From the IMG/VR virus record IMGVR_UViG_3300035670_000125: a stretch of 64,000 nt of DNA; one strand, written 5' to 3'. The translations under genes and the position numbers were made by a program. The notes below the pieces were generated by a model. The model did no database searches and was not told the origin of the DNA. It saw nothing but the letters and a program-made list of their open reading frames with translations. Position 1 is the stretch's first letter, and every line of letters starts with the position of its first letter. This document shows, one piece after another, positions 4,592-38,110 of this stretch. The DNA is from a virus.

Positions 4592-4748
4592 TTAGACCTT
4601 GGTTTTTAACTACTTCTTTTTGTTTGTCTAAGAGATCTTTTTTTATTTCTAAATTATCGTTCAGTGCTTCTGCTGATTTAGCTTTCGATCTTTGAAAAAG
4701 AAAAGCACCCACTAAACCTACAATTAAAGCTGCTAGTGTTTCTATCAT
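4497..4748 (-). CDS. small membrane protein with N-terminal TM and charged coiled-coil
   Basis: MIETLAALIVGLVGAFLF is hydrophobic, followed by a Lys/Glu-rich helix. ATGA-type overlap with the upstream protease gene. Confidence 0.55.
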   Translation of the reverse strand: MIETLAALIVGLVGAFLFQRSKAKSAEALNDNLEIKKDLLDKQKEVVKNQGLIEAEEQKREEIKNDEKTPTLIDIADYINRRK

Positions 4749-5605
4749 AGTTGCATATCCAAAATCTTATGTCTCTCACCTCTATTTGGTGAGGGTAAAT
4801 AAGGCGTAACGCGTTCCTCGAATCCTTGTGTTGAATTTAGAACACGTGAAGGATCAAAAAGAACGTTAATTGTCCCATCACTAAAATGGGAGACCAAAGA
4901 ATCCTCGGCGTCAATCCATAGTTCAGCCGCCAATTTAGAACTTAAATCTTTAAACGACATCCCAGCTCGAGTTGCAATTTTTGCAATCATTTTGTTTATG
5001 TATCGATTCATAGATTTAAGTTGTGATAACATCTGAGGCATAGTTCCCGATACACCACCAGATGCCTCGTGAAACATCAAGAAGGATCTATCAACCATAT
5101 ATCGTTTTGTTCCGTGCTGGTGAATGATTGCACCCATGGAGGCGCAAAGGGAAAGACAAACTGTGTTTACTTCAACACCAGCTGACTCGATTGCACTGAT
5201 AATCTGCGCTCCAGCAATTACACTACCACCAGGACTATCAATTAGAACCCAAATGGGATCGCCCGAACGCGCTGCAAGTTTTATTGCATCAGAAACATTG
5301 AAAGCGTTTCTTCCAATAGGACCAGTAATGTGAATTACCTTTTCATCGGTTAAATCCACCATTTTAACATTACTTGTCTGAAGAGCCGTTTTAGGTTCTT
5401 TTGAATCAGCATCATCTACTTCAGGTAGTAAACTACTACTTACGTTAATGTTTTGTACCTTGGTTTTAACTCCAGTGTAAATTTCCCCTACGGTGTAGTA
5501 TGCTGCGTACCCGAGAGAAACTCCAATAGATAGGAAAAAAACATTTTTTACTACTGCTTTAAACATTATTATTTTTATCACTTTCTGACGTAAATTCACG
5601 TCCAT
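4745..5605 (-). CDS. ClpP-class (S14/S49-like) serine protease with N-terminal membrane anchor
   Basis: Motifs LIDSPGGSV, CASMGAII (Ser nucleophile context) and FLMFHEASGG (compare ClpP MIHQPxGG). Hydrophobic N-terminus VFFLSIGVSLGYAAYY. Alternative start at ATG 5566. Confidence 0.75.
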   Translation of the reverse strand: MDVNLRQKVIKIIMFKAVVKNVFFLSIGVSLGYAAYYTVGEIYTGVKTKVQNINVSSSLLPEVDDADSKEPKTALQTSNVKMVDLTDEKVIHITGPIGRNAFNVSDAIKLAARSGDPIWVLIDSPGGSVIAGAQIISAIESAGVEVNTVCLSLCASMGAIIHQHGTKRYMVDRSFLMFHEASGGVSGTMPQMLSQLKSMNRYINKMIAKIATRAGMSFKDLSSKLAAELWIDAEDSLVSHFSDGTINVLFDPSRVLNSTQGFEERVTPYLPSPNRGERHKILDMQL

Positions 5606-5804
5606 TTATACTAATTCTTCTTGAGAAGTACAAGGCAGAAGAAACGCCAAAATATTCTAATGCAATACTCGTATCTTCCACTTTACCCGAAAGATCGAGT
5701 GATGCTGCTACCAATAAAAAAACCGTCGATATCATCAAATTACTTAACGATACAGACGGCTTTTTAGTTATTGGATCTAATATAAAAGGTATTTTTATCT
5801 GCAT
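5559..5804 (-). CDS. small membrane protein
   Basis: 81-aa ORF with the hydrophobic segment LMISTVFLLVAASLDL. Overlaps the next gene. Confidence 0.45.
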   Translation of the reverse strand: MQIKIPFILDPITKKPSVSLSNLMISTVFLLVAASLDLSGKVEDTSIALEYFGVSSALYFSRRISINGREFTSESDKNNNV

Positions 5805-5821
5805 ACATTATAAATAAACAT

Positions 5822-6184
5822 CTAATCTTCTGATTTGTCAAGTTCTTTAAAAGATTTTCTCATTTCATCTTCTAACATAGTTTTAATTTCATGATCCATC
5901 TTACAAAGAATCTGGAAACCTTCGACATCACAGAGTAGATTATTTATAAAGTCATCCCACCCAGAGAATCCAACTGAAGGATTGATTACTGGTTTTATGT
6001 GATCGATGTGTACTTCGTCCTTTTTGAAGTTACCCTCACACATTGCACATCTGTATAGGCCGCGATCGACTCTTGCTTTTTTGAGGGCTTCATTCCTAGG
6101 AGGCCAACGTAATGATGCCCTTCTTAATGCTCCGGTGACAAAGGTTTTTCTGTTATGTTTTTTGAGCTTTGGTTCTTTTGCCAC
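5822..6184 (-). CDS. HNH endonuclease (free-standing)
   Basis: CAMCEG...VHIDHIKP...N...CKMDHEIK arrangement, typical of the HNH beta-beta-alpha-metal fold with flanking Cys pairs. Confidence 0.8.
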   Translation of the reverse strand: MAKEPKLKKHNRKTFVTGALRRASLRWPPRNEALKKARVDRGLYRCAMCEGNFKKDEVHIDHIKPVINPSVGFSGWDDFINNLLCDVEGFQILCKMDHEIKTMLEDEMRKSFKELDKSED

Positions 6185-6452
6185 AACTATTACACTTTCT
6201 TATTTTCCTACCAACAATTTCGAATTCTTCTACTTCGGTTTTATTACAGAATTCACAGGAATATAGTTTGGGGACATACTCTTCGTTTTTAAACTTTGTT
6301 TGTACGTCGGTTTCTTCGAATTCATGGTAAGTAAATTTTTTATCTATTTTTTTTAATCTTCTAACTAGAGACTTGTTGATTGCTTTTAATGTTCTTATTT
6401 GATCCTCGAGTTGCTCGATCTTGTCTTCGTCTTCACTCTTTTTTCTGCCCAT
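6153..6452 (-). CDS. zinc-ribbon protein
   Basis: CEFCNK...CNSCGK paired CxxC motifs after a charged helical N-terminus. Confidence 0.55.
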   Translation of the reverse strand: MGRKKSEDEDKIEQLEDQIRTLKAINKSLVRRLKKIDKKFTYHEFEETDVQTKFKNEEYVPKLYSCEFCNKTEVEEFEIVGRKIRKCNSCGKRTKAQKT

Positions 6453-6660
6453 TGTTTAGCCTCTGAACTAGATCTTTGTAGCTTTCTTTGAGTTGTTTAA
6501 TATGACTCTTTACGTTGTATAGTGCTTCCAAGGCAATTTCAGAATGTTCTTCATATCTAGAGGATTGAACGCTTTTGTAGCTGGCTATTAAATGGTCAGC
6601 GTTTTCTTCTACAGTTTTTAACGCTGTTATATAGCCTTTTATATAATCGTTGGTGATCAT
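6433..6660 (-). CDS. hypothetical protein
   Basis: 75-aa helical ORF overlapping both neighbours in the leftward train. Confidence 0.5.
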   Translation of the reverse strand: MITNDYIKGYITALKTVEENADHLIASYKSVQSSRYEEHSEIALEALYNVKSHIKQLKESYKDLVQRLNNGQKKE

Positions 6661-7100
6661 CGGCCAGAACTCCCAAATCCATGCAAACCTCTCTCACTTT
6701 CATCTAGGGAATCTGTTACCACAACTGAAGGGGTTTCGACTCTGTAAAAAAGTATTTGTGCTATTTTATCACCTTTGGAGATGAAATAACCTGAGTTTTC
6801 TATACCTGGGATTCCATGGGTTAGATTGTGTATGACCACTTTAACTTCTCCGGTATATCCATGGTCAACCACACCTCCCCCTGTCCGTAATCCTTTAGCG
6901 GCTAGGGATGAGCGATCTTCAATCTTACCCACGTAACCTTCCGGTACTGCAAGTGCAACTGAAGTGTTGACTACCACTGTAGAGCCTAATTTAATAAAGC
7001 AGTCTTGTGATGCGTAAAGATCCAACCCAGCGTCGGTAGATTTATTTCTAGTGGGGAGAGATGCTTTATCGTTTAAAAGTACGACTTTAATGTTATTCAT
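6657..7100 (-). CDS. dut: dUTP diphosphatase (dUTPase)
   Basis: Trimeric dUTPase motifs AGLDLYA, GVVDHGYTGEV and C-terminal RGLHGFGSSG. 147 aa. Confidence 0.9.
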   Translation of the reverse strand: MNNIKVVLLNDKASLPTRNKSTDAGLDLYASQDCFIKLGSTVVVNTSVALAVPEGYVGKIEDRSSLAAKGLRTGGGVVDHGYTGEVKVVIHNLTHGIPGIENSGYFISKGDKIAQILFYRVETPSVVVTDSLDESERGLHGFGSSGR

Positions 7101-7109
7101 ATTTTAAAA

Positions 7110-7352
7110 TTAAATATCCCAACTGATTAGTAGAGCAGTTTCAGATAGCTTAGATACAACATAGCCTAGTTCTTCTAGTGAGGACTTTGTGCTGTCCGCA
7201 GTTCCGTTTTGAACCGATACCGTGGTTACGAGTCCACCCGCTTCTGCTTCCTGCTCAATGATGTCATGTAGTCGTTCTAGTTGTGCTGGTTCTTGTTGTC
7301 TCTGTGATAAAATCTGTTGGGCGGTTTGTTTATTTTCTAATGCTGATTTCAT
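7110..7352 (-). CDS. hypothetical protein
   Basis: I trimmed the start to the internal ATG (MKSALENKQ), which has AAGAGGA 7 nt upstream and avoids overlap with the upstream gene. The ORF-track start at 7424 lies inside the preceding gene. Confidence 0.5.
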   Translation of the reverse strand: MKSALENKQTAQQILSQRQQEPAQLERLHDIIEQEAEAGGLVTTVSVQNGTADSTKSSLEELGYVVSKLSETALLISWDI

Positions 7353-7363
7353 ATTATATCCTC

Positions 7364-8020
7364 TTATTTTTTCTTTGGAATGAGATGTGGAACACCGTGT
7401 TCGATGTATCCAAACCCCACCCATACTTTGGTTAAAGAACTTGCCGCATAATCAAATGCTGAACTTTTGGGATCCACAGTACACCCCACGTCCATTGCGA
7501 ATATCTGTTTATCAAAACGATTTAAGTAGTGTAGTTCTGCTTTGTGGGAGTGTCCTTGGACAACGTTCATACCGAGTGTGGCGGCCTTCGCTTTAACCCC
7601 GCCGTGTAGCTCATCGCCGTGCATGAATGCTATCTTGTCTACAATAAGTGGATCAGGTCCAAGGTGCCATTTCCAGCCTTTATTGGGGATAAGCTCTGAA
7701 AGAGTTCTGATCATTATTTTAGGAATGCCGCTTTCAGCTGCCTTCTTTGCATAACGTCGATCATGGTTTGAATTTAGGATAACGAGTTCGGGAAACATTT
7801 TTGCAAATTCTTTAGCTGTTTTTAAAACCTTTTCCCATTCTGCCATTCCACCATCATCTTCCGGACCTTTGGGGAACCTACTCCAGTACTTCTGATCAGT
7901 CATATCACCTGTCGATATAACGATATCAGGCTTCGCTTTTTTAGCAAAGTCTCGAGCTTGCTCGATTACATCGAAGTCGGTGAATGGTAAGTGGGAATCG
8001 CCCAGTACAAGTATTTTCAT
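7364..8020 (-). CDS. calcineurin-like metallophosphoesterase
   Basis: Ordered motifs LGDSH, GD(MTD), NSNHD, HGDE and GHSH, typical of the metallophosphoesterase superfamily. Confidence 0.8.
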   Translation of the reverse strand: MKILVLGDSHLPFTDFDVIEQARDFAKKAKPDIVISTGDMTDQKYWSRFPKGPEDDGGMAEWEKVLKTAKEFAKMFPELVILNSNHDRRYAKKAAESGIPKIMIRTLSELIPNKGWKWHLGPDPLIVDKIAFMHGDELHGGVKAKAATLGMNVVQGHSHKAELHYLNRFDKQIFAMDVGCTVDPKSSAFDYAASSLTKVWVGFGYIEHGVPHLIPKKK

Positions 8021-8334
8021 TATTCTGTTTCCTTAAAAATGTTATTTGACTTTAAAAAATAATAAAAGGATTTCTCTAAAGCTAGAACTTGTTTCTCTGT
8101 CAAATCGACCTCGTGCTCCCCAGAAGTTGCATGAAGAACTTCGTGTAGATATGTAATGACTGTTAATTTGGGTGACATACTTTTTTTAATTGCTATCTGT
8201 CTTTTATCAAATCGCGTTTCACCCATAACATCCTGACTAGTAAACGAATCCACCCAAACAACTTCATAAGAATGAGTTTTTGTTATTTGAACTTTGCTAG
8301 GAATTTTCTTCAGGAGTTTTTTCCAACTTAACAT
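8020..8334 (-). CDS. small HExxH-motif protein (possible zinc metallopeptidase-like)
   Basis: LHEVLHATSGEHE contains HEVLH. 104 aa. ATGA-type junction with the upstream gene. Confidence 0.45.
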   Translation of the reverse strand: MLSWKKLLKKIPSKVQITKTHSYEVVWVDSFTSQDVMGETRFDKRQIAIKKSMSPKLTVITYLHEVLHATSGEHEVDLTEKQVLALEKSFYYFLKSNNIFKETE

Positions 8335-8620
8335 TTTCCATCTCTTCTTTTATTTTAAGAATTACTTTTTTGTATTTATTAAGATGAATCTCAAGAAGTA
8401 GTTTATTATTTTGCAACACAGAGATGCACTCCATAACGAACACATATCTTTTGAAGTTAGATAATCCGTTAATCGTTAAATCAAATATATACAACACTAA
8501 ACTAAGCTCTTCAACTACTTTTTCTGATTTTTCAAGTAATTTTTTCTTTTTGTTGTACTCTTGTACTTTTTTAAAGTCTAAAATATTATTTTCATCATTC
8601 ATTGCTAAATTTCTTCGCAC
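8297..8620 (-). CDS. hypothetical protein
   Basis: 107-aa Lys/Glu-rich ORF. Possible alternative start at MNDENN (8602). Confidence 0.45.
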   Translation of the reverse strand: MRRNLAMNDENNILDFKKVQEYNKKKKLLEKSEKVVEELSLVLYIFDLTINGLSNFKRYVFVMECISVLQNNKLLLEIHLNKYKKVILKIKEEMENVKLEKTPEENS

Positions 8621-8819
8621 TTCGTTGTTCTAATGCTCGTTGAATTTCATTGCTCAAATTTACTTCTTCTTTCAATGAAGTGTAGGACGATATTCTACTT
8701 GAGTTTTTTTCTAGCCTAAATGGTCTAGAATTAATTAATAAGTCGTAGTAGGATATTTTGTATTCTGCTTTTCGGTCATTTTTTCTACTTAGGTGTGAAT
8801 TTTTTATACGGTTATTCAT
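8595..8819 (-). CDS. hypothetical protein
   Basis: 74-aa basic ORF overlapping both neighbours. Confidence 0.4.
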   Translation of the reverse strand: MNNRIKNSHLSRKNDRKAEYKISYYDLLINSRPFRLEKNSSRISSYTSLKEEVNLSNEIQRALEQRSAKKFSNE

Positions 8820-9795
8820 AATCAGAAAACCCCATGCCTACGGACTTTTGTTTACTGAATGCCTTTTTATACTTTTCTATTTCTTTGACTATTTCAGAAA
8901 TAGTTTCCTTTAGATCCTTGTCATATATAGCGGATCTAATCACGGCTTCTTTAATGTGCGCTGGTGTAAACTCTGCACATTTATTGCTGGATATGAGATT
9001 TAGTGTTTCTTCGCTGGGCTTACCCTCTTTAGAAAAAAACCCCAACAGTTCTTTTCTTTGTTCTCCGTCCGGGTATCCGACTTCGATCTTGTCATCAAAC
9101 CGCTGTGGTCGGTTTGTTAAGTTGCCCAAAAATGCTTCTGGGAAATTAGTAGTTGCCAAAATAAGTACTGGTATTTTAAATGTTTTCTCTTGGTTGTCCA
9201 GTAAACTCAAAAGAGAAGAATCGCTTCTCATTCTAGTTTGATCGATTTCAATGCCACCAATATCTTCAACTATCAGTACCAACTTTTCGACTCCGCTGGT
9301 GTAGTTAAAAGACTTAACAAAATCTTTAACTTCAAAAGCTTCGAATTTGTCTGTAGTCCAGACGACGATAGCTGTCTTTGAATCGGTTTGGTATTGTTGA
9401 GCAACTTTATTTAGAACAGTGGTTTTCCCTGTTCCAGCTGGACCGTATAGAAGAATACCCCTTTTGGGGACTTCTATCCCATACTTTTTGTACACGTCGA
9501 GTTTATTAAAAAAACAATCGATTTTATCTGTGATATTTTTAGTGTGAACAAATGAGGATAAGATGTCGTCCTTAACAAAAGACGTTGGAACAAGGGATAA
9601 CTTTCCCATTACTTTTTGGATTGTCCAGATTCCAGGCTTTACATCATAGGCTGGAGATTCATCCTCGTCGTCGTGGTATTCCATTTGGACGAAGTTATTT
9701 TTTTGGGTTAGAATACTGAAATCCGATTCAGTGATTTTAGACCCAATTTCCATCTCATCTAGATTTGATTTAGCCTTGATAGTAAAGTAACCCAT
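8812..9795 (-). CDS. AAA+ ATPase
   Basis: Walker A LLYGPAGTGKTT, Walker B LVLIVEDIGG and a downstream TTN sensor-like motif (LATTNFP). Confidence 0.8.
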   Translation of the reverse strand: MGYFTIKAKSNLDEMEIGSKITESDFSILTQKNNFVQMEYHDDEDESPAYDVKPGIWTIQKVMGKLSLVPTSFVKDDILSSFVHTKNITDKIDCFFNKLDVYKKYGIEVPKRGILLYGPAGTGKTTVLNKVAQQYQTDSKTAIVVWTTDKFEAFEVKDFVKSFNYTSGVEKLVLIVEDIGGIEIDQTRMRSDSSLLSLLDNQEKTFKIPVLILATTNFPEAFLGNLTNRPQRFDDKIEVGYPDGEQRKELLGFFSKEGKPSEETLNLISSNKCAEFTPAHIKEAVIRSAIYDKDLKETISEIVKEIEKYKKAFSKQKSVGMGFSDYE

Positions 9796-10832
9796 TAGTT
9801 TTTCCCATGTGGTTTAGATTCAATCAATCCATTATTACTAATCTTAATAAATCTAGCATTCTGCTTTAACATTGTCAAATTAGAAGCACCTACGTAGGTT
9901 AGTCCCGATTTAATTCCAGCAGAGAGACTCTGTAGGACTCCGACCGCAGAACCTTTGTACTGAACATAGGTTGATTCACCTTCGGCAGTTCGGTGTTGGG
10001 ATACTTTGCCTTGAACTTCGTAAGACTCAAGTGATGCCGAACCACGGTATTTTTTACGAAAACCCCCACCATAGGCGTCGGTATATGCCACTAATTCCCC
10101 TGGAGTTTCATCTGTACCAGAAAGAAGACTCCCAATCATTACTGCATCTGCACCAGCTGCGAGAGCCTTTACAATATCACCGCTATTTTTAATGCCCCCA
10201 TCGGCGATAATATTAATTCCCAATTCATTTGTATATCTATAACAATCCATGACGGATTGTAACGTGGGCATCCCGCATCCTGTGACAATCCTAGTTGTAC
10301 ACATGCTGCCTCCTCCAATCCCAACTTTAAAAGTATTTGGCATCTGTGATGCTTTGGAATGGTATAGAAAGTCACTTATATCCCTGGCCGTGGCTACATT
10401 ACCGATAATAATTGAAGCATCTGATTTTACTATCTTCCTGAGTTCATCATATTGTTGAACGACGTGAAGTGCCGCTGCGTGTGCCACATCAATTACAAAC
10501 TGCTTGGCTCCCGCATAGAAAAGAGCTTCAGCCCTCTCCAATTCACCTTTGCCAATTCCAATTGAAACAATCGTTGACTTTGGAGAATCCAAGAATTCTT
10601 TTACATTATCCTCAATGGACATAAATCTATGAAGACACCCAACGCCACCACTTTGTTGCATTGCATTAGCCATTTTACTACCCGTGACGGTGTCCATGTT
10701 GGCTGAAATAATGGGCAAAGATAGATTTAAATTATTAACATTTGTTGAAATATCAACTTCTTTCCTAGAGCTTATCTTAGAGAAGGAGGGAACAATTAAC
10801 ACGTCATCAAAACAATATGAATTTTCGATCAT
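9795..10832 (-). CDS. guaC: GMP reductase-like enzyme (IMPDH/GMPR family, no CBS insert)
   Basis: [11 protein letters not shown], the catalytic-loop signature [11 protein letters not shown] and [26 protein letters not shown]. The 345-aa length fits GMP reductase rather than IMPDH. Confidence 0.75.
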
Positions 10833-17518: not shown

Positions 17519-18020
17519 TTTCAGCTCCTGCTGCTAGTTCGGTTTTCTTAGCTGGTTTCCTAAATGATCCCGCTTTAGTAGTTGATGTTGAAGCTACAGC
17601 TTGTTCTAAGTTGGATACAGTTGCTGCTGCTTGGCCTCTAACGTCCACTACTGGACTATCCACGATTCTATCTCCTTCGTCAAGATCAGAGATAGCGAAT
17701 TGTGTTCCGTACCCGAGCATAGCCAAAGCTCTCCCCACTGCAGAGGTTTCAGCCTTTTCAGTGTGGTCGGAGAAATCTTTTTTAGTTTCACGTTTAGTGG
17801 CACTAGCTCGTTTGATCTCTTTACCTTCTTTATCAAAAACAGTGACCACGGCTCGAGCAACAGTTTGGTCGTCGTTTACAAGAAGAAAATCAGTCTCGAT
17901 ACGAAAATTAGTTTCTGTTTCATTAAACCATTGAAGCCGATGTGCCACCAAAAGATAGTCCTTACCTTTTAGATTGGCGAGTGGTAATGAAGTTCCTTTT
18001 GGGGTAGTTACAGTTTTCAT
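17502..18020 (-). CDS. putative single-strand annealing protein (Rad52/Sak-like motif)
   Basis: EKAETSAVGRALAMLGYG resembles the conserved helix-hairpin motif of Rad52/Sak-type annealases. A RecB/Cas4-like exonuclease lies 2 kb away. This is a weak motif-level call. Confidence 0.4.
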   Translation of the reverse strand: MKTVTTPKGTSLPLANLKGKDYLLVAHRLQWFNETETNFRIETDFLLVNDDQTVARAVVTVFDKEGKEIKRASATKRETKKDFSDHTEKAETSAVGRALAMLGYGTQFAISDLDEGDRIVDSPVVDVRGQAAATVSNLEQAVASTSTTKAGSFRKPAKKTELAAGAENDGWE

Positions 18021-18036
18021 ATATTATCTCCTTTAA

Positions 18037-18300
18037 TTAGATTCTAATTTTTTTAGCAGCAATAACTTTAAATCTTTCACTAGCAAGATCTCTACTAGGG
18101 AATTCAGTTACATCCTGAACATCTGATTCCCCGGTATTTGCGTTGAACGCGATCTCAACCAATCCCCATTTCCCGTTTTGTAGCTTGGCGATTCCCAAGG
18201 CTAGACTGTTTAAAACGGCCTCCTGGGTGGGTTGAGTTACTGTTACTTCTTCTTGATTTAAAAAGTCTGTCAACGTTAGGTCTTTTTTCTTTTTAGCCAT
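18037..18300 (-). CDS. hypothetical protein
   Basis: 87-aa ORF. Confidence 0.5.
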   Translation of the reverse strand: MAKKKKDLTLTDFLNQEEVTVTQPTQEAVLNSLALGIAKLQNGKWGLVEIAFNANTGESDVQDVTEFPSRDLASERFKVIAAKKIRI

Positions 18301-18366
18301 CTGATGCTCCTGTTCGGATGTTGGTGGTTTTACCTTAACACATCCAAATACTATTGTCTATTTTTT

Positions 18367-18588
18367 TTAGTATTGTTCTTCATTTCCTTCTTCAACTTCT
18401 TTATCGTAACGCTGTTTAGTTAGAAGAAATATCACAACAGATGCAATTAGCCAAGCTACAATATATAAAAAATTAATATCTTCTTTTGAAGAAATCTTGT
18501 CTGATATATTATACCCAGTGTGGGTTAGGAATAAATAACATCCGGTGTAAAATATATCTAAAACAAATCTAAGAATATCTTCTTTCAT
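18367..18588 (-). CDS. small membrane protein
   Basis: Two hydrophobic segments (FYTGCYLFLTH; YIVAWLIASVVIFLL). Confidence 0.5.
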   Translation of the reverse strand: MKEDILRFVLDIFYTGCYLFLTHTGYNISDKISSKEDINFLYIVAWLIASVVIFLLTKQRYDKEVEEGNEEQY

Positions 18589-18662
18589 TTTTTATTTACC
18601 AATATAACAACAACACTTAAAAATATTGCAGCAAAGATAGCAAAGAAATAAAAACTAGCCAT
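18585..18662 (-). CDS. 25-aa hydrophobic peptide (below ORF-track cutoff)
   Basis: ATG at 18662 is preceded by GGAGG at 8 nt. Encodes MASFYFFAIFAAIFLSVVVILVNKK. Its TGA overlaps the ATG of the next gene (ATGA). Confidence 0.4.
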   Translation of the reverse strand: MASFYFFAIFAAIFLSVVVILVNKK

Positions 18663-18682
18663 TGTTCTACCTCCAAATCAGG

Positions 18683-19093
18683 TTACTTTTGATTTGAGTC
18701 TAAGTCAAGATGATCAATAAGATCCAACGAGCCATCGGTTTGAATTCCGATCTCGGTCAATGAATTTTTAAGATTTTTTAATACGATTTTTAAACTGTTG
18801 TTCTCAGTTTTTAATCTGGAAATTATATTCTCTTGAATTCTAATATGACTTTCTAGTTCTTGTTCTCGGTAACTATTAAATTCCATCTTGTTATTCATTT
18901 GGCTTCCTAATACTTCTTTTGCTATACATGGATCACACTGCTTTTCCAAAGCTACACACTCTTTTGTGCAGTGATCATCTGCTATTAGCACTAATGCTTC
19001 CCTAAAACAATCTCTTTCTTCTTCGATCTTTTTAATCTCTTTGATTACCCAAGGTGCTGCTTCACAATCCCTGAGTCGTTCATGTAGGCTCAT
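18683..19093 (-). CDS. hypothetical coiled-coil/Cys-containing protein
   Basis: Start trimmed to the internal ATG (MSLHERLRD), preceded by a G-run. The ORF-track N-terminal extension runs through a GC-rich hairpin region. Confidence 0.5.
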   Translation of the reverse strand: MSLHERLRDCEAAPWVIKEIKKIEEERDCFREALVLIADDHCTKECVALEKQCDPCIAKEVLGSQMNNKMEFNSYREQELESHIRIQENIISRLKTENNSLKIVLKNLKNSLTEIGIQTDGSLDLIDHLDLDSNQK

Positions 19094-19131
19094 GTTTCCC
19101 CCCAAAGTGTTCTTTCTGATGGTATTGTCAT
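19090..19131 (-). CDS. 13-aa upstream leader ORF (MTIPSERTLWGET)
   Basis: AAGGAG lies 5 nt upstream of the ATG. Its TGA overlaps the ATG of gene 18683-19093 (ATGA). Sits just after a terminator-like hairpin. Confidence 0.3.
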   Translation of the reverse strand: MTIPSERTLWGET

Positions 19132-19142
19132 AAAGACTCCTT

Positions 19143-19172
19143 AAAAAATTGGGAGCAGGGCGCGACTCCTGC
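19143..19172 (-). terminator. possible intrinsic terminator/attenuator
   Basis: On the minus strand, a GCAGG-N8-CCTGC hairpin followed by TCCCAATTTTTT. The T-run is offset from the stem, so this is weak. Confidence 0.3.
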
Positions 19173-19320
19173 CTACTGTTTTCAGGGATGGGATAGCAGC
19201 TTTCCCAATGACCTTTCACCCTTTGTCGTCATAGCGTGTCTCCAGTGAGTAACACTCCGCTTTCACGGTATCCGAGTTACACTCAACCCCCTCACAGCTT
19301 CCCACGCCGTCCCAATTAAC

Positions 19321-19677
19321 TTATTTAAACAAAGACCCAGACTTAAATCTAAACCCAGATCCAGACCAAGACCTAGATGTGGGCCCAGACAAAGACCCAT
19401 AGCAAGATCTAGATCTGAGGCCAGACACAGACACAGACCTAGACCAAGACCCAGACACAGACCTAGACCAAGACCTAGATGTGGGCCCAGACAAAGACCC
19501 ATAGCAAGATCTAGATCTGAGGCCAGACACAGACACAGACCAAGACCCAGACAAAGACCCAGACAAAGACCCAGACACAGACCTAGACCAAGACCAAGAC
19601 CCAGACAAAGACCCAGACAAAGACCCATAGCAAGATCTAGACCTAGACCATTTTTGTCTTAAACCACGAATATTCAT
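19321..19677 (-). CDS. X-Ser dipeptide-repeat, Arg-rich low-complexity protein (118 aa)
   Basis: Its ATG overlaps the TGA of the upstream gene (ATGA). It encodes (G/R/W/V/L)-S repeats with three copies of SRSCYGSLSG. Other frames are also open because of the repeat, so coding status is not proven. Confidence 0.45.
   Translation of the reverse strand: MNIRGLRQKWSRSRSCYGSLSGSLSGSWSWSRSVSGSLSGSLSGSWSVSVSGLRSRSCYGSLSGPTSRSWSRSVSGSWSRSVSVSGLRSRSCYGSLSGPTSRSWSGSGFRFKSGSLFK
19330..19652. repeat. (AGACNN)n hexanucleotide tandem array with 102-nt higher-order repeat
   Basis: The plus strand reads agaccc/agacaa/agacac/agacct/agacca units almost continuously, about 320 nt or on the order of 50 six-nt units. 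A 71-nt block at 19369-19439 is identical to 19471-19541 (offset 102 nt), and a third partial copy sits near 19605-19645. Confidence 0.95.
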
Positions 19678-19961
19678 CGCTTATCTGTCTTTCTATACGA
19701 CTCGATAGAATTAGATCTTACATAGAGATTGCCAACTTTTTGTGCATCCGCATATCTAGGAACATCAAATGGTCCTGTCTCATAAACAATAGCGGCGTCT
19801 TTAAGAAGAACGTCATGTGTATTTACTCCGGTTAGTGTGCCTGTGTAAATGTAATTCATACAAAACAATTCAACACGTTCACCGAGCAATCCAACCAACC
19901 CTTCTCCTTCAACTTCGTGAACGTTTATAATCTTCTTCATATAGTTTATAATCTTCTTCAT
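19674..19961 (-). CDS. hypothetical protein
   Basis: 95-aa ORF. The 5' end carries a 21-nt tandem duplication that includes the start codon (MKKIINY-MKKIINV), so either ATG (19961 or 19940) may be used. Confidence 0.55.
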   Translation of the reverse strand: MKKIINYMKKIINVHEVEGEGLVGLLGERVELFCMNYIYTGTLTGVNTHDVLLKDAAIVYETGPFDVPRYADAQKVGNLYVRSNSIESYRKTDKR

Positions 19962-19976
19962 ATAATACTCCTCTTC

Positions 19977-21065
19977 TTACTTATTCAGTTTTTCTAACCC
20001 GTCCATTGAGTCTTTGTAGCAAAGATTATAATAGACGCACTTACCGAAAGTTCTTACGCAGCTCGAGAAATTACGGTGATAGACACCGTTTTTAATAGCC
20101 GTGTTTATATAATCGAAGTTCTCTAGTACAATCTCTTCTGTTTTCTCTGGTATCTTATCGATTACGATTTGTACAAAAATCTCTGGGTCTAAGCTAAAAT
20201 CCCACTCACCGTTACATCTTATACCATCTGTTGTGTTATTACAAGTTTTGTGATTAGTTCCTTCGTTTGCGTAATTACATTTCTTGCAGGTTTTGGTGCG
20301 GTTCTTTCTTACGTTCTTATTTAAGACAATATACCCAGCTTTTCTTGTGTCTTTAAATTGATCACTAAGACAGTGAACATAAAGGGTTAGCTGTGGTGAA
20401 GTAAGTACTGAATCAGTCGCATAATCTTTTGCAGAGGTTTTGAAATCAAAAATAATAGGTTCATCGTGACCTTCCCATTCAGCTACCATGTCGGCATAGC
20501 CAACAATCATGTCACCTACTTCATTCTCAAGTTTACAGTAAACCTGTGCGCCATGCATTTTCTTAATTTTAGGTAACACTTTATTACGCACGGCTTCTAT
20601 CATGAGTAAGCCCTTACGATAGAGTGATAACCAATTAGCGTAATTTAAAAGTTTTTTTCTGTGCTCAGGTAATCCATCAAATCCGGCGTATTCCTTTTCA
20701 TCGTAAACCTTTTGCACCTCTGCTAAAGGATTCTCGATCTTAAATTCTTCGCGTATTTTGTCCAAGTCTTCGGCCAATAACAGTTCTTCATCGTAGTCGG
20801 AATTTGCATAGACGATATTTGTTGCTGTTGGTAGATATGTCTGTTTACCGTTGATGTCCTGAAACCTCCAGAAATAAGAGAACACGTCCTCTGGTTTTTT
20901 TTCAGAATTTTTAATAAGTGAAGTTACAGCTGCGTCTACTGCTGATCCAAACGCGAGTGCGGCATGTTGGGTTTTAGAACGTAGGCGATCCACATAGTGA
21001 TACTTCCATTTTGTTGGACAATCCATAAATTGGTTAGATGCACTGTGTGAAAGTTTGTTCTTCAT
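19977..21065 (-). CDS. PD-(D/E)XK exonuclease, Cas4/RecB-like with Cys cluster
   Basis: N-terminal DCPTKW Cys plus C-terminal C-x6-C-x5-C (SSCVRTFGKCVYYNLC). GYADMV...IFDFKTS nuclease core. Confidence 0.75.
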   Translation of the reverse strand: MKNKLSHSASNQFMDCPTKWKYHYVDRLRSKTQHAALAFGSAVDAAVTSLIKNSEKKPEDVFSYFWRFQDINGKQTYLPTATNIVYANSDYDEELLLAEDLDKIREEFKIENPLAEVQKVYDEKEYAGFDGLPEHRKKLLNYANWLSLYRKGLLMIEAVRNKVLPKIKKMHGAQVYCKLENEVGDMIVGYADMVAEWEGHDEPIIFDFKTSAKDYATDSVLTSPQLTLYVHCLSDQFKDTRKAGYIVLNKNVRKNRTKTCKKCNYANEGTNHKTCNNTTDGIRCNGEWDFSLDPEIFVQIVIDKIPEKTEEIVLENFDYINTAIKNGVYHRNFSSCVRTFGKCVYYNLCYKDSMDGLEKLNK

Positions 21066-22227: not shown

Positions 22228-23151
22228 CTAATCAATATTGAAAAGTTTTAAAAATAGTTTGAAGTGTTTATTCGAACATCCAACATTTAAACGGAAATTG
22301 TCTTTAGAAGAACCCAATGATTCACCATTTAAAAATGTTATCTGCTTTGGGCAATTTCCCTTTGCCCATAAAAACATACCATCTCTGTTTAAAATTTCAA
22401 AAGGAAATTTATCTTTGTTGGAATTTATTTTTTCCCATCTTTCCTTCATTATTTCTTGACCATAAGTGAACGCGCTATTCTGGTGTCTGAAGGGGTGGGT
22501 CTCATATCTCAATGTTGCTTCTGCTTTTATTTGTGCATCAATAGAAAGACCACCTGTTGTGATCTCTATCCATTGTTCTAGTTTTTTGGCTATGATCTTA
22601 TCTTTTATGACAGCCCAACCTATTCTCGTGTTAGCGAGCCCTAAGGCCTTGCTAAAAGAGAAAACCATAATTGAATGATTGTATTTAACTACCTCTTTAT
22701 ACTGAGGCCAGTTGTAACAAAGGTCTAAGATTTGGCAAGATGAATAATCGCTTATTGTTGAGTCAGGATTATTGGGATTGGTTACAATTTGAATTGTGTT
22801 ATAAACGGCATCTCTCCGCCATTCGAGTTTTGCGGCATCTGCAAGTAGGGGGAATCTTGAAAAGTGTGGTGCAGTCGCTGTTACTTTTTCATAAAAGTTA
22901 ACATCTCTTAAAACGCAAAGTAGACCGAAGATTATCTGAGACGCCCCTGCGCCAACTACAATGTGTTTGTTAGTTAAATCTACGTTGTTTGCTTTTTTAT
23001 GTAGCTTTTTGATTAATCTCTTCAGCGGTCTTCTGGAGCCGAACTCGTAATTTTTGGTTCTTTTTATGTGATCAGTTTTAATTTGAACTTTATTCCAATA
23101 AGGGGCTAAAAAGCTTGGGCTACCCCACGCCATATCTATTTTTTTATGCAT
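22228..23151 (-). CDS. PLP-dependent aminotransferase-fold enzyme, alliinase/TAA-like
   Basis: FSFSKALGLANTRIGWAVIKD is the class I/II PLP-lysine motif and closely resembles the alliinase-C pattern (TLSKxTGHAGxRxGWAxxKD). N-terminal WGSPSFLAPYW resembles the GDPxxxExYW pattern of that family. Confidence 0.65.
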   Translation of the reverse strand: MHKKIDMAWGSPSFLAPYWNKVQIKTDHIKRTKNYEFGSRRPLKRLIKKLHKKANNVDLTNKHIVVGAGASQIIFGLLCVLRDVNFYEKVTATAPHFSRFPLLADAAKLEWRRDAVYNTIQIVTNPNNPDSTISDYSSCQILDLCYNWPQYKEVVKYNHSIMVFSFSKALGLANTRIGWAVIKDKIIAKKLEQWIEITTGGLSIDAQIKAEATLRYETHPFRHQNSAFTYGQEIMKERWEKINSNKDKFPFEILNRDGMFLWAKGNCPKQITFLNGESLGSSKDNFRLNVGCSNKHFKLFLKLFNID

Positions 23152-24900: not shown

Positions 24901-26793
24901 TCACTTTACAGGACAGACGCCGCCGACGCACTCAAATGAGTCTTGAATATCTTCTTCTTTGATTTCGCAGGATGTAATTGGTTTTGTTCTAGATACCATC
25001 TCATCGTACTGAGACTTTGTGATTTCTTCAAGCGGAGCTTGTTTAAATCCATGTTCGTTGTGGAGAAGAAAGCTAACGGTTTTAAGATTATTGTTATAAT
25101 TTTCTTTTAGCCACTGTTTTATTTGTGGGAGTTCTTCTTTCCGGTAATAAACGGTACAACTAACTGAGTTATCACTCCAATTGGCTTGTAGTTCTTTCAC
25201 CACTTCCAATTGGTCAAGCGCACTCACATCATGTGCCAAAACCGTCTGTTCTGGGAACGAGCATGGGAAGGAAACAACAACAGTGTTATTATCATTGGTG
25301 CCGTCGAAGTTTTTTTGAAACTCTACATCATAACCATGTTGTCTACACACCTGGACAAGTGGGGATGAAGACGCCATCCTAATTCTTCTGATGTGATATC
25401 TAGAGTAACCTGGGTGTGCTCCTGGTGTTGTACCTGCCAATAGAGACAATGTACCACTAGGTTTAACTGTCGTGAGTTTTACTGATTCAGGGAACCCGTG
25501 CGCCTTGCTGTATGCTGCATCGAATTCTCGGATCTTTGAGTAGGTTTCTCTCAACCAGGATCTCTGCTCTTTCGTTGCTTGTAGGTAGCCCGTGACACCA
25601 ATACCCATTCTCATGTTCTTGTGAACAATCTTGGCTGTTTCTTCGTGGTGACAGTCCAAAGCTAATGAATGCTTATTGATACGGTACAGGTATGTCGCTA
25701 CTTCTAGCAATTCCTCTTTTGTTTCAATGTTTGGAAGGAAAATCTCAGCCAAACAGCAAGTTTCTTTATCCGCTAGAGATTGTTCTGCGCATGGATTGAA
25801 TCCAATTACTTCTGGATCAGGGCGGGAGGTGTCTCCGGTTCTCCCAACGGTCCTAGCTAAACCAAGATTGATTAACCCATAAGGTTCACCATTACCTTCG
25901 TAACCGTTCCAGAATTGTTCGGGTAGGAGATTCATATCATTACAAACAATTGAATTGTTAGACATTGCTCTCCAGTTTGGAATGTTCCCTAAATCCCAAC
26001 GCTTTGCATTTAGATACTGCAAATCATCCATATCACCGATTGCAATTTGTGCGGAACGACGAACGTTTCCAGCAACAACAATATACCCAATGATATTCAT
26101 AATATCCAAGCAATCGATTGGTCTTGCTTTTTTACCAGCACGTTCATTGAGTAGTTTGGAGATTTGTTCAATACCCCAGCAAAGTTCTTCTGGACCGGAT
26201 GCAACGCCACCGAATCCCTTGATGGGAGTTCCTTTACCTCTCACACAAATAGTAGAGAAGGAAAACCCCTTACCGGTAATAAAGTGTGTGGTAAGCGTTT
26301 TTTCTAGAAGTTCAACCCACCCCTCTCTTGTGTCGGGAACAATGAAGTCAGCATCCTGGGTATCCATTCGGACCACCTTAGCTTTCTTCACTTTAGGTAA
26401 AGCATACACGTATTCTCTTTGGATGTTATAGCCGACCCCGCTACCAAGCATGAGCATATCCATTGCCCAAGTGAAAGGGCGAATGGGATGATCTACTAGA
26501 GTTACGGCACAGTTTTGCAAGGAGGCAAGTCCCAGCTTATCGACTGTTTTTGTTCCTAACTGCCAAAGGAAGCGTCCAGCTACAATGCCTTTCAGAGACA
26601 ACATTATTTCTCTTAGGCGCAGTTTTTCCTTTGCACTAAATCCAACCTTCAGTTGGGTGTCAGTGGCTTTGATGATTCTATCAACGGTATTTTCAAATTC
26701 CTCGGTTTGATCTGTTTTGTTGTCTAGCTTTCTTGCGTAGGTCCTCTTGTAGGTGATGTATCCGAGTGGGCCCCAAGGTGTTTTTGTTTCCAT
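24901..26793 (-). CDS. nrdJ: ribonucleotide reductase, class II (adenosylcobalamin-dependent)-like
   Basis: NPCAEQSL...ETCCLAEIFLP (active-site Cys/Glu loop), VKPSGTLSLLAGTTPGAHPGYS and the C-terminal Cys pair CVGGVC. A single 630-aa chain with no separate beta subunit nearby. Confidence 0.8.
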   Translation of the reverse strand: METKTPWGPLGYITYKRTYARKLDNKTDQTEEFENTVDRIIKATDTQLKVGFSAKEKLRLREIMLSLKGIVAGRFLWQLGTKTVDKLGLASLQNCAVTLVDHPIRPFTWAMDMLMLGSGVGYNIQREYVYALPKVKKAKVVRMDTQDADFIVPDTREGWVELLEKTLTTHFITGKGFSFSTICVRGKGTPIKGFGGVASGPEELCWGIEQISKLLNERAGKKARPIDCLDIMNIIGYIVVAGNVRRSAQIAIGDMDDLQYLNAKRWDLGNIPNWRAMSNNSIVCNDMNLLPEQFWNGYEGNGEPYGLINLGLARTVGRTGDTSRPDPEVIGFNPCAEQSLADKETCCLAEIFLPNIETKEELLEVATYLYRINKHSLALDCHHEETAKIVHKNMRMGIGVTGYLQATKEQRSWLRETYSKIREFDAAYSKAHGFPESVKLTTVKPSGTLSLLAGTTPGAHPGYSRYHIRRIRMASSSPLVQVCRQHGYDVEFQKNFDGTNDNNTVVVSFPCSFPEQTVLAHDVSALDQLEVVKELQANWSDNSVSCTVYYRKEELPQIKQWLKENYNNNLKTVSFLLHNEHGFKQAPLEEITKSQYDEMVSRTKPITSCEIKEEDIQDSFECVGGVCPVK

Positions 26794-28153: not shown

Positions 28154-28231
28154 TGGCTGGGGGAGCTGGGATCGAACCAGCCTCGTTCTCGGTTAACAGC
28201 CGAGCGCATTCACCTTGATTGCTACCCCCCA
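28154..28231 (-). tRNA. tRNA-Asn: tRNA-Asn (anticodon GUU), CCA encoded
   Basis: Minus strand: acceptor TGGGGGG/TCCCCCA, D arm GCAA-TCAAGGTGA-ATGC, anticodon arm CTCGG-CTGTTAA-CCGAG, T arm GCTGG-TTCGATC-CCAGC and a GCCA 3' end. Confidence 0.8.
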
Positions 28232-38042: not shown

Positions 38043-38110
38043 TTGACATGTATATGAATTTGACAGTGTGTAAGAAGTAGACAGCGGCTATTTGTTAGAC
38101 AGGGGGGGGG
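38043..38110. repeat. four T(T/A)GACA hexamers at 17-18-bp spacing followed by a G-run
   Basis: TTGACA at 38043 and 38060; TAGACA at 38078 and 38096. CAGTGTGTAA occurs twice. A palindrome AACTGAaTCAGTT sits at about 38013-38025. Poly-G at 38102-38110. Confidence 0.85.

Follow-up and report, generated by a model that had tools for sequence, protein, structure and literature searches.

An X-Ser dipeptide-repeat gene paired with a predicted Sm-like gene in uncultured phages

The hexanucleotide array and the two genes at the locus

The DNA analysed here (the window) is a 64-kb stretch of 64,000 nucleotides (nt), one strand read 5' to 3', from the IMG/VR virus record IMGVR_UViG_3300035670_000125. 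Window coordinates are counted from its first letter as position 1, and labels of the form L### denote recovered phage loci. The element under study is an array of six-nt units, singled out in an original prediction made from the letters alone, that fills an open reading frame (ORF) for a protein in which a variable residue X alternates with Ser. The start of this ORF overlaps the end of a gene for a small acidic protein with a predicted Sm/LSm fold. No earlier description was found of this conserved and widespread combination, in which a phage Sm-like protein is accompanied by a Gly/Arg/Trp-Ser repeat protein driven by slippage, and it is regarded as new. The features at the locus are listed below.

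19327-19650, minus strand: hexamer array, (NNGTCT)n on the coding strand and (AGACNN)n on the plus strand
19363-19541, minus strand: higher-order 102-nt repeat, 2.2 copies at 91% identity (Tandem Repeats Finder)
19321-19677, minus strand: (X-Ser)n protein ORF of 118 amino acids, with leader MNIRGLRQK, about 54 dipeptide units and stop codon TAA
19651-19677, minus strand: short basic N-terminal leader MNIRGLRQK, preceding the first unit
19674-19677, minus strand: ATGA stop/start overlap, in which the X-Ser ATG overlaps the TGA of the ORF at 19674-19961
19674-19940, minus strand: partner gene for an acidic 88-amino-acid protein with a predicted Sm/LSm fold (the listed ORF starts at 19961 and has 95 amino acids)

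The sequence itself, a table of its units and the repeat finder all bore out the predicted (AGACNN)n array at 19321-19677. On the minus strand GTCT ends 36 of the 55 hexamer units, the others being one- or two-base variants such as ATCT, CTAT, CCTC and GTTT. A four-unit GTCT pattern matched the window 21 times, every time within the array, and was not matched in 100 shuffles. Periods of 6, 12, 24, 36 and 102 were reported at the array by Tandem Repeats Finder. The 71 nt at 19369-19439 had been described as identical to those at 19471-19541; an exact check showed that they are, and that the identity extends to 77 nt (19363-19439 and 19465-19541). The third copy of the higher-order repeat that had been claimed with it is detectable but weak, with 44 of 71 positions matching. 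The other reading frames were also as described, with a second open minus-strand frame of Leu-Gly/Leu-Cys repeats at 19263-19628 and, in the ORF listing, no plus-strand ORF with a start codon over the array.

The overlap of the X-Ser ATG with the upstream TGA was likewise found in the ORF listing. The encoded 118-residue protein contains 44 Ser, 17 Gly, 14 Arg, 10 Leu and 7 Trp, and its X positions are filled nearly at random by Gly, Arg and Trp, and to a lesser extent by Leu and Val. An AlphaFold2 (AF2) model built from the single sequence had a predicted local distance difference test (pLDDT) score of 37.6, which gives no confident fold. The repeat fills nearly all of the protein, and no Pfam domain was found above threshold. 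Membership of the serine/arginine-rich (SR) proteins, which requires an arginine-serine (RS) domain together with an RNA recognition motif (RRM), was rejected on these two results.

The immediate upstream neighbour of the array had been taken to be the exonuclease gene. This was incorrect, as the Sm-like gene lies between the exonuclease gene (19977-21065) and the array. Translation of the Sm-like gene probably starts at its second Met, as in relatives (alignment A1). The Sm/LSm fold consists of a short N-terminal helix and, behind it, a strongly bent antiparallel beta-sheet of five strands. The AF2 model of the partner (pLDDT 87.4) has five strands, with only a three-residue helical turn ahead of strand 1. 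The best 50 Foldseek matches in the PDB were all Sm, LSm or LSm-domain proteins at probability 1.00, with template modelling (TM) scores, normalised to the target, of up to 0.85 and root-mean-square deviations of 1.4-2.5 Å for the best-fitting hits. For this gene and the X-Ser ORF alike, no annotation and no family in Pfam or PHROGs was found. The 5' end of the Sm-like gene contains a perfect 21-nt tandem duplication (window 19923-19964), in which the start codon and first six codons are repeated (MKKIINY-MKKIINV); the duplication is common to L001 and is not present in other relatives.

Conservation of the cassette and of its repeat protein

Relatives were sampled in three ways. An exonuclease-based search recovered 14 IMG/VR loci, five of which carry a three-part arrangement of a small protein, an overlapping X-Ser ORF and a conserved sequence after its stop codon; two of these five carry the arrangement twice. 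The X-Ser ORFs of the exonuclease-found relatives read MNIRGLKQKW(X-Ser)n and encode 34, 62, 64, 68, 76 and 80 amino acids, compared with 118 here, and the conserved sequence following their stop codon begins GTTAATTGGGACGGCGTGGGAAGC. A seven-unit GTCT pattern matched at least 120 IMG/VR stretches, roughly half of them small ORFs in which (Gly/Arg/Trp-Ser)n comes after a short, basic leader. Position 1 of the hexamer is free in these arrays and positions 2-6 are fixed at 85-97%, the synonymous third base of the Ser codon being equally fixed, which at first suggested a DNA or RNA motif. This sample is circular because its arrays were chosen by GTCT itself. A non-circular sample of 80 IMG/VR loci was fetched through partner-gene alignment A1, blind to the repeat, and in about 75 of these a (Gly/Arg/Trp-Ser)n ORF lies directly downstream of the partner gene.

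In the partner-sampled loci the nucleotide motif is not conserved and the amino acid is. Ser codons totalled 547 TCG, 474 TCT, 250 AGC and 163 TCA, with each array using essentially one codon, and since AGC shares neither of its first two bases with the TCN codons it is Ser, and not GTCT, that is retained. GGTCT is wholly absent from many of these arrays, and those using TCG, AGC or TCA, which read (NGGTCG)n, (NGGAGC)n or (NGGTCA)n, contain 0-2 such motifs. The comparison of codon positions proposed with the original prediction thus places conservation at the protein level and supports its claim of a basic protein of X-Ser dipeptide repeats encoded in the start-coupled frame. The same result removes its suggestions of a DNA binding-site array, decoy or origin and of a GUCU-rich RNA sponge, as the motif is missing from most homologous arrays.

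Avoidance of stop codons was assessed at unit junctions defined by nucleotide pattern alone, with expectations calculated from marginal frequencies. The dinucleotide TA, which would produce TAG in the X-Ser frame, occupied the NN position at none of 1713 junctions when 38 were expected, with AA, CA and GA found 18, 46 and 53 times. An independent sample contained one such junction in 1392, compared with 11 expected. Of 63 cassettes sampled independently, 33 have the 4-nt stop/start overlap and 60 have the X-Ser start within 11 nt. Where a spacer exists, a Shine-Dalgarno-like GGAG often precedes the start (L041, L063, L017). The leaders are basic and 8-13 residues long, and an R-[GS]-x-K-Q-K-[WY] pattern recurs loosely in them across relatives that differ in DNA.

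The X residues are constrained in composition and not in order, as in disordered proteins of the sticker-spacer type. Among the 81 arrays of at least 15 units, X is Gly in 37%, Arg/Lys in 29% and aromatic in 26% of positions. The standard deviations of these three classes between arrays (0.12, 0.10 and 0.08) match those of binomial sampling alone (0.10, 0.09 and 0.09), and the proportions hold in loci of 30-66% guanine-plus-cytosine (GC) content. All three classes make up at least 10% of X in 76 of the 81 arrays, and neighbour frequencies are near random. The X-Ser proteins have a median length of 64 amino acids and a Ser content of 40%, and all of them carry a net positive charge, of about +10. 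Because Ser is kept across codon families, TAG is avoided and starts are coupled in the great majority of cassettes, the array is best interpreted as the coding sequence of a translated gene and not as an array of DNA or RNA motifs.

Two further coding arrangements were considered and rejected. Dual coding with the overlapping Gly-Leu frame would account for the fixed positions 2-6, but it does not hold across the family, since that frame becomes Gly-Arg, Gly-Ala or Gly-His/Gln under other Ser codons and has no conserved start. A programmed frameshift joining the Sm-like and X-Ser proteins was dismissed because the relative frame varies (-1, +1 and 0 by hand reading) and no fusions were present among 150 family representatives.

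The partner family comprises 917 homologs in 495 clusters at 50% identity. Its members are nearly always stand-alone proteins of 85-125 amino acids and are never fused to an X-Ser tail; in a few (P0121, P0135, P0177) two Sm-like domains occur in tandem in one polypeptide. A second Sm-like subfamily (A3) was linked to the first by hhalign (probability 96.7%, E 4e-10, 15% identity), carries the motif IRTVTM..G.L...ASWIADTGRF...EVEP and has no Pfam match. It has X-Ser ORFs downstream at the following loci.

Second-subfamily loci: L034, L054, L080, L094, L097, L110, L118, L131, L133 and L028

An X-Ser ORF lies directly behind 82 of 88 distinct Sm-like genes, as a single copy in 73 and in up to eight or more copies elsewhere. 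Conservation does not extend to any other neighbour, the largest cluster of neighbours covering 4 of the 88 cassettes, and the pair is therefore regarded as a self-contained mobile module. It moves between unrelated genomic contexts, its loci span 30-66% GC, and the same architecture was found in independent metagenomes. A precursor of a ribosomally synthesised and post-translationally modified peptide (RiPP) was also considered for the repeat protein and rejected; a short semi-conserved leader and a variable core are present, yet the neighbour analysis revealed no conserved enzyme.

Tandem expansion was observed at two loci. L017 (about 5480-8950, minus orientation) has at least eight complete X-Ser copies, and up to 14 ORF segments, behind one Sm-like gene, each copy with its own leader of the MITKR(S/T)(R/K)W(R)RR type. 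L054 (1539-3179) has seven copies behind a gene of the second subfamily.

The sole GenBank phage record with the cassette is L215 (MW202825.1, 2911-3562), in which no annotation covers the Sm-like gene or the first X-Ser ORF, a second such ORF is listed as a hypothetical protein and the array mixes TCG and TCT. DNA and exonuclease-protein searches of 50,697 GenBank phage records with the sequences of the present phage returned nothing similar. A protein search with the X-Ser sequence gave 2635 word-sharing candidates, none significant, and a search of bacterial genomes gave 15 matches only, all in metagenome-assembled bins. Literature searches, including searches with peptide strings, returned no description of either gene or of their pairing.

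Length change, proposed function and competing explanations

Array length changes rapidly and always in frame. Compared with its closest relative (L001/L135), the array differs by insertions or deletions (indels) of 6, 18, 24, 42, 6 and 18 nt, all within the array. Between contigs whose aligned flanks are 99.8-100% identical, the sole differences are array indels of 6, 42, 48 and 90 nt, another pair (97% identical) differs by an 84-nt array indel, and one pair differs by a whole 241-nt gene copy. All length changes within arrays are multiples of 6 nt, which is what the copy-number comparison suggested with the original prediction was to look for, and the frame never switches. The accompanying proposal of a slippage-prone contingency locus was therefore correct as to hypervariable length and not as to switching. 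A phase-variable locus was rejected, as a 6-nt unit with indels of 6, 18, 24, 42, 48, 84 and 90 nt varies length and not phase.

Units are probably gained and lost by slippage or unequal recombination. The hexamer regularity of the DNA is a by-product of this in-frame gain and loss, which would homogenise codons; uniform codons within an array together with differences between arrays are what concerted evolution by slippage predicts.

The following mechanism is proposed. The basic X-Ser polypeptide would be a disordered, multivalent chain in which Arg and Trp serve as stickers separated by Gly and Ser spacers, and it would dock onto an acidic Sm-like oligomer through its short conserved leader or through charge. 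The complex would bind nucleic acid, most likely RNA, and may give rise to ribonucleoprotein assemblies early in infection, in the replication phase. Slippage or unequal recombination would homogenise the codons, with selection keeping the Gly/Arg/aromatic mix and the open frame. On balance, it is somewhat favoured that the repeat-protein gene is the downstream half of a coupled two-gene cassette and that its product, polycationic and disordered, works together with the Sm-like protein, probably on RNA. A more specific version is offered tentatively. In this version the cassette would be a minimal two-component system, present in phages of many lineages, of an acidic Sm-like ring and one to many hypervariable Arg/Trp/Gly-Ser sticker-spacer copies that builds RNA-protein condensates or otherwise captures host or phage RNA early in infection. 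It would be a viral, split-gene counterpart of those eukaryotic Sm/LSm proteins that have Arg-Gly (RG) tails, its valency tuned by slippage.

Several observations weigh against an RNA-directed cassette of this kind. Translation is deduced from sequence statistics, and the partner is an Sm/LSm protein at the level of predicted fold only. The Pfam LSM family (PF01423) reached E=0.034 and 14.3 bits, below the cut-off of 23.4, in 2 of 32 members; hhalign of the partner against the archaeal Sm protein SmAP1 of M. thermautotrophicum gave nothing. The partner is acidic, unlike most RNA-binding Sm and Hfq proteins, a property at least as consistent with a basic polypeptide as ligand as with RNA. Array length does not appear to be tightly required, as arrays have shrunk to four units or disappeared in L151, L175, L173 and L203. 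The lengths themselves come from short-read metagenome assemblies and are uncertain in absolute terms, and 17 of 80 IMG/VR contigs stop within 450 nt past the partner gene, inside or just beyond the array.

Contigs ending at the array: L142, L143, L151, L159, L164, L166, L168, L170, L191, L207, L210, L212, L214 and others

The last of the contrary observations concerns the X codons, which are NGG in about 95% of cases family-wide and in all arrays but that of L193 (GGG 524, TGG 353, AGG 238, CGG 165; other Gly codons 28). This bias is attributed, by argument and not by test, to Trp having only the codon TGG. Under NGG, changes of the first base interconvert Trp, Gly and Arg, and GGA, AGA or CGA units would sit one mutation from TGA. 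The array of L193 (about 1760-2050) is composed of NNC codons (TAC, CGC, GGC, TGC, CAC) and TCG and encodes (Tyr/Arg/Gly/Cys/His-Ser)n, with Tyr replacing Trp, a swap that fits a need for an aromatic residue.

Two additional observations on the partner are recorded here. A search of the PDB by sequence with the Sm-like profile returned a spurious Mx1 match only, and the loop-3 positions, which bind uridine in archaeal Sm proteins, were variable by eye in alignment A1.

The function proposed above is read from sequence, and sequence data do not separate it from its main rival, an unlikely alternative in which the X-Ser protein would be a polycationic effector or toxin directed at the host membrane, ribosome or nucleoid and the Sm-like protein a chaperone or antidote that neutralises or delivers it. 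The opposite charges of the two products (about +10 for X-Ser and about -3 per monomer for the partner, whose family has isoelectric points of 4.4-5.6) would suit such a pair, and tight translational coupling suggests a fixed product ratio. The Arg/Trp-rich composition resembles that of the familiar antimicrobial peptides, hypervariability and tandem expansion to eight or more copies would fit an arms race, and some LSm domains bind peptides and not RNA, 6f9w and 5lop being among the Foldseek matches. Nevertheless, the X-Ser protein lacks any hydrophobic or amphipathic helical stretch, a Ser content of 40% and a random residue order are not usual in membrane-active peptides, and the cassette lies among early and replication genes, not lysis genes.

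The NGG bias also bears on a possible role for the messenger RNA, alone or in addition to the protein. The (NGGNNN)n transcript would be a periodic ligand for the Sm-like oligomer, as spaced triplets are for TRAP and HutP, serving autoregulation or RNA scaffolding, and the sole use of translation would be to keep the transcript clear or stable. NGG is kept whatever the Ser codon or genome GC, GG recurring at a 6-nt period in every array but L193 while GUCU is not conserved; gene order and adjacency are invariant, and the predicted fold of the partner is of an RNA-binding type. This explanation was nonetheless judged quite improbable. L193 keeps the architecture with no GG, and the retention of Ser across TCN and AGC and the avoidance of TAG are not needed by an RNA ligand. 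The fixed proportions of Gly, Arg and aromatic residues are a property of amino acids, and the acidity of the partner also counts against it. By hand count, synonymous variants within arrays occur at about 3.5% of X third positions compared with about 2.6% of Ser third positions, as homogenisation alone predicts. Service of the NGG units as a protospacer-adjacent motif (PAM) decoy or as a G-quadruplex was considered and set aside on argument, fifty extra GG being negligible in a 64-kb genome, and L193 has no GG.

It is very improbable that the ORF is a neutral slippage-prone passenger or an assembly artefact. Lengths do vary widely, with arrays collapsing to 0-4 units, assemblies often break at the array, and the make-up of the repeat leaves two of the three minus-strand frames open. 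These points are outweighed by the recurrence of the ORF behind 82 of 88 Sm-like genes in two subfamilies about 15% identical, by the avoidance of TAG, by the conservation of coupled starts and leaders and by the recovery of one architecture from independent metagenomes; the composition, moreover, does not drift to one unit type.

A function of the AGAC/GTCT units as DNA, whether as iterons or an origin, primase sites, a type III restriction decoy or sites for early proteins, can practically be discounted, for although all units lie on one strand within a replication/recombination module and include the well-known T7 primase sites (GGGTC, TGGTC, GTGTC) and EcoP1I site (AGACC), homologous arrays lack GTCT, which eliminates both the T7-type primase sites and the EcoP1I decoy, the primase-helicase of this phage has no detected Toprim domain and a weak archaeo-eukaryotic primase match, and the cassette shifts between unrelated genomic contexts.

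Genome context and comparison with known systems

The window is laid out as a long minus-strand early/replication block facing a plus-strand late block. Besides the genes listed below, the early block encodes a family B DNA polymerase and the primase-helicase, in which a DnaB-type helicase domain was detected and the weak primase match is to the archaeo-eukaryotic small subunit.

4745-5605, early block: ClpP-like protease
9795-10832, early block: GMP reductase/IMPDH-family enzyme (E 2.6e-91)
19146-19319, minus strand: structured RNA-like element of 174 nt, directly after the X-Ser stop codon
19977-21065, early block: PD-(D/E)XK exonuclease
22228-23151, early block: alliinase-like pyridoxal phosphate (PLP) enzyme
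24901-26793, early block: class II ribonucleotide reductase
28154-28231, early block: transfer RNA for Asn (tRNA-Asn)

Between the early and late blocks lie four T(T/A)GACA hexamers (38043-38101) followed by a G-run. These look like ordinary -35-type promoter boxes. A link between them and an AGACA core of the array had been drawn in the original prediction; the resemblance is coincidental, as homologous arrays in relatives contain no AGAC.

The element downstream of the X-Ser stop codon has three core helices (AAUUGGGA/UCCCAAUU, GCGUG/CACGC and GCAGG/CCUGC) with variable domains between them. Nine distinct copies are known. In eight aligned sequences 99.3% of cells in the core helices are paired, compared with 31-44% in slid controls, and four pairs have compensatory changes. 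Its 3' hairpin and U-run look like a terminator. The covariance model R1 found one copy in the window (174.7 bits), and a search of Rfam over 18000-20500 gave no match at E<=1. In relatives the element lies behind different genes, with a tandem duplicate in L010/L012. A role as a universal third part of the cassette was rejected, since R1 finds the element in this phage clade only, in 10 IMG/VR contigs.

Several characterised systems resemble one or the other half of the cassette. The closest in overall design are the eukaryotic Sm/LSm proteins with low-complexity Arg-Gly tails (SmB, SmD1, SmD3 and LSm4) and Scd6/LSm14 with its RGG motifs. As at the phage locus, an Sm fold is accompanied by repetitive, Arg/Gly-rich, disordered basic sequence, and the (GR)n tail of SmD1 shares its dipeptide periodicity with (X-Ser)n. 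The phage repeat differs in being a separate, translationally coupled polypeptide that is never fused, in having Ser at every second position and Trp at about a quarter of X, and in being hypervariable in length and viral. The phage Sm-like part is acidic and has no sequence homology to the eukaryotic proteins, the Pfam LSM match being below threshold.

Among phage proteins, the T4 early proteins GoF, MotB.1 and Frd.2 have predicted LSm-like folds (PMC12152347). Like the partner described here, they are small and have no detectable sequence relatives outside phages (PMC12152347). A role at the RNA level is suspected for them, the measured effect being only that of GoF(D25Y) on mRNA stability (PMC12152347). 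No X-Ser partner gene has been described for these proteins, which are likened to the present family by description only.

The RS repeats of SR proteins, which have been reviewed (PMC4822317), and sticker-spacer regions share with the X-Ser proteins alternating Arg-Ser, high Ser content and a constraint that is compositional and not positional. The X-Ser proteins differ from SR proteins in having no RRM or other folded domain in the chain and no associated kinase, in containing Gly and Trp as frequently as Arg, and in their bacterial-virus setting.

Rof (YaeO; PDB 1sg5, 8ptm), an acidic Sm-like inhibitor of Rho with about 86 amino acids, is like the partner in size, acidity and Sm-like beta-barrel class, and by analogy a Rof-like anti-termination role would suit a phage early gene. 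The two have no sequence similarity (hhalign probability 0.5%), Rof falls outside the top 50 Foldseek matches, and it has no repeat-protein partner. For the repeat itself the nearest likeness is to the well-known staphylococcal Ser-Asp repeat proteins, which also have hexanucleotide coding repeats, in-frame length polymorphism and homogeneous codons within an array. Those repeats are spacers of large surface proteins, whereas the basic X-Ser repeat makes up nearly its entire protein and belongs with a single partner gene. None of the systems compared here includes a hypervariable X-Ser partner encoded by a gene of its own.

The cassette is known from metagenomic records only, in hundreds of uncultured phages. 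Such arrays break short-read assemblies, a standard protein search brought up no significant match for such ORFs, and the present locus illustrates that striking DNA periodicity can arise purely from protein-level selection combined with slippage. If the proposed function is correct, phages would combine an Sm fold with a basic, disordered repeat sequence in the manner of the small nuclear ribonucleoprotein (snRNP) and processing-body (P-body) proteins of eukaryotes, and the cassette would provide a very small, genetically tunable model for the control of ribonucleoprotein assembly by repeat length and stickers.

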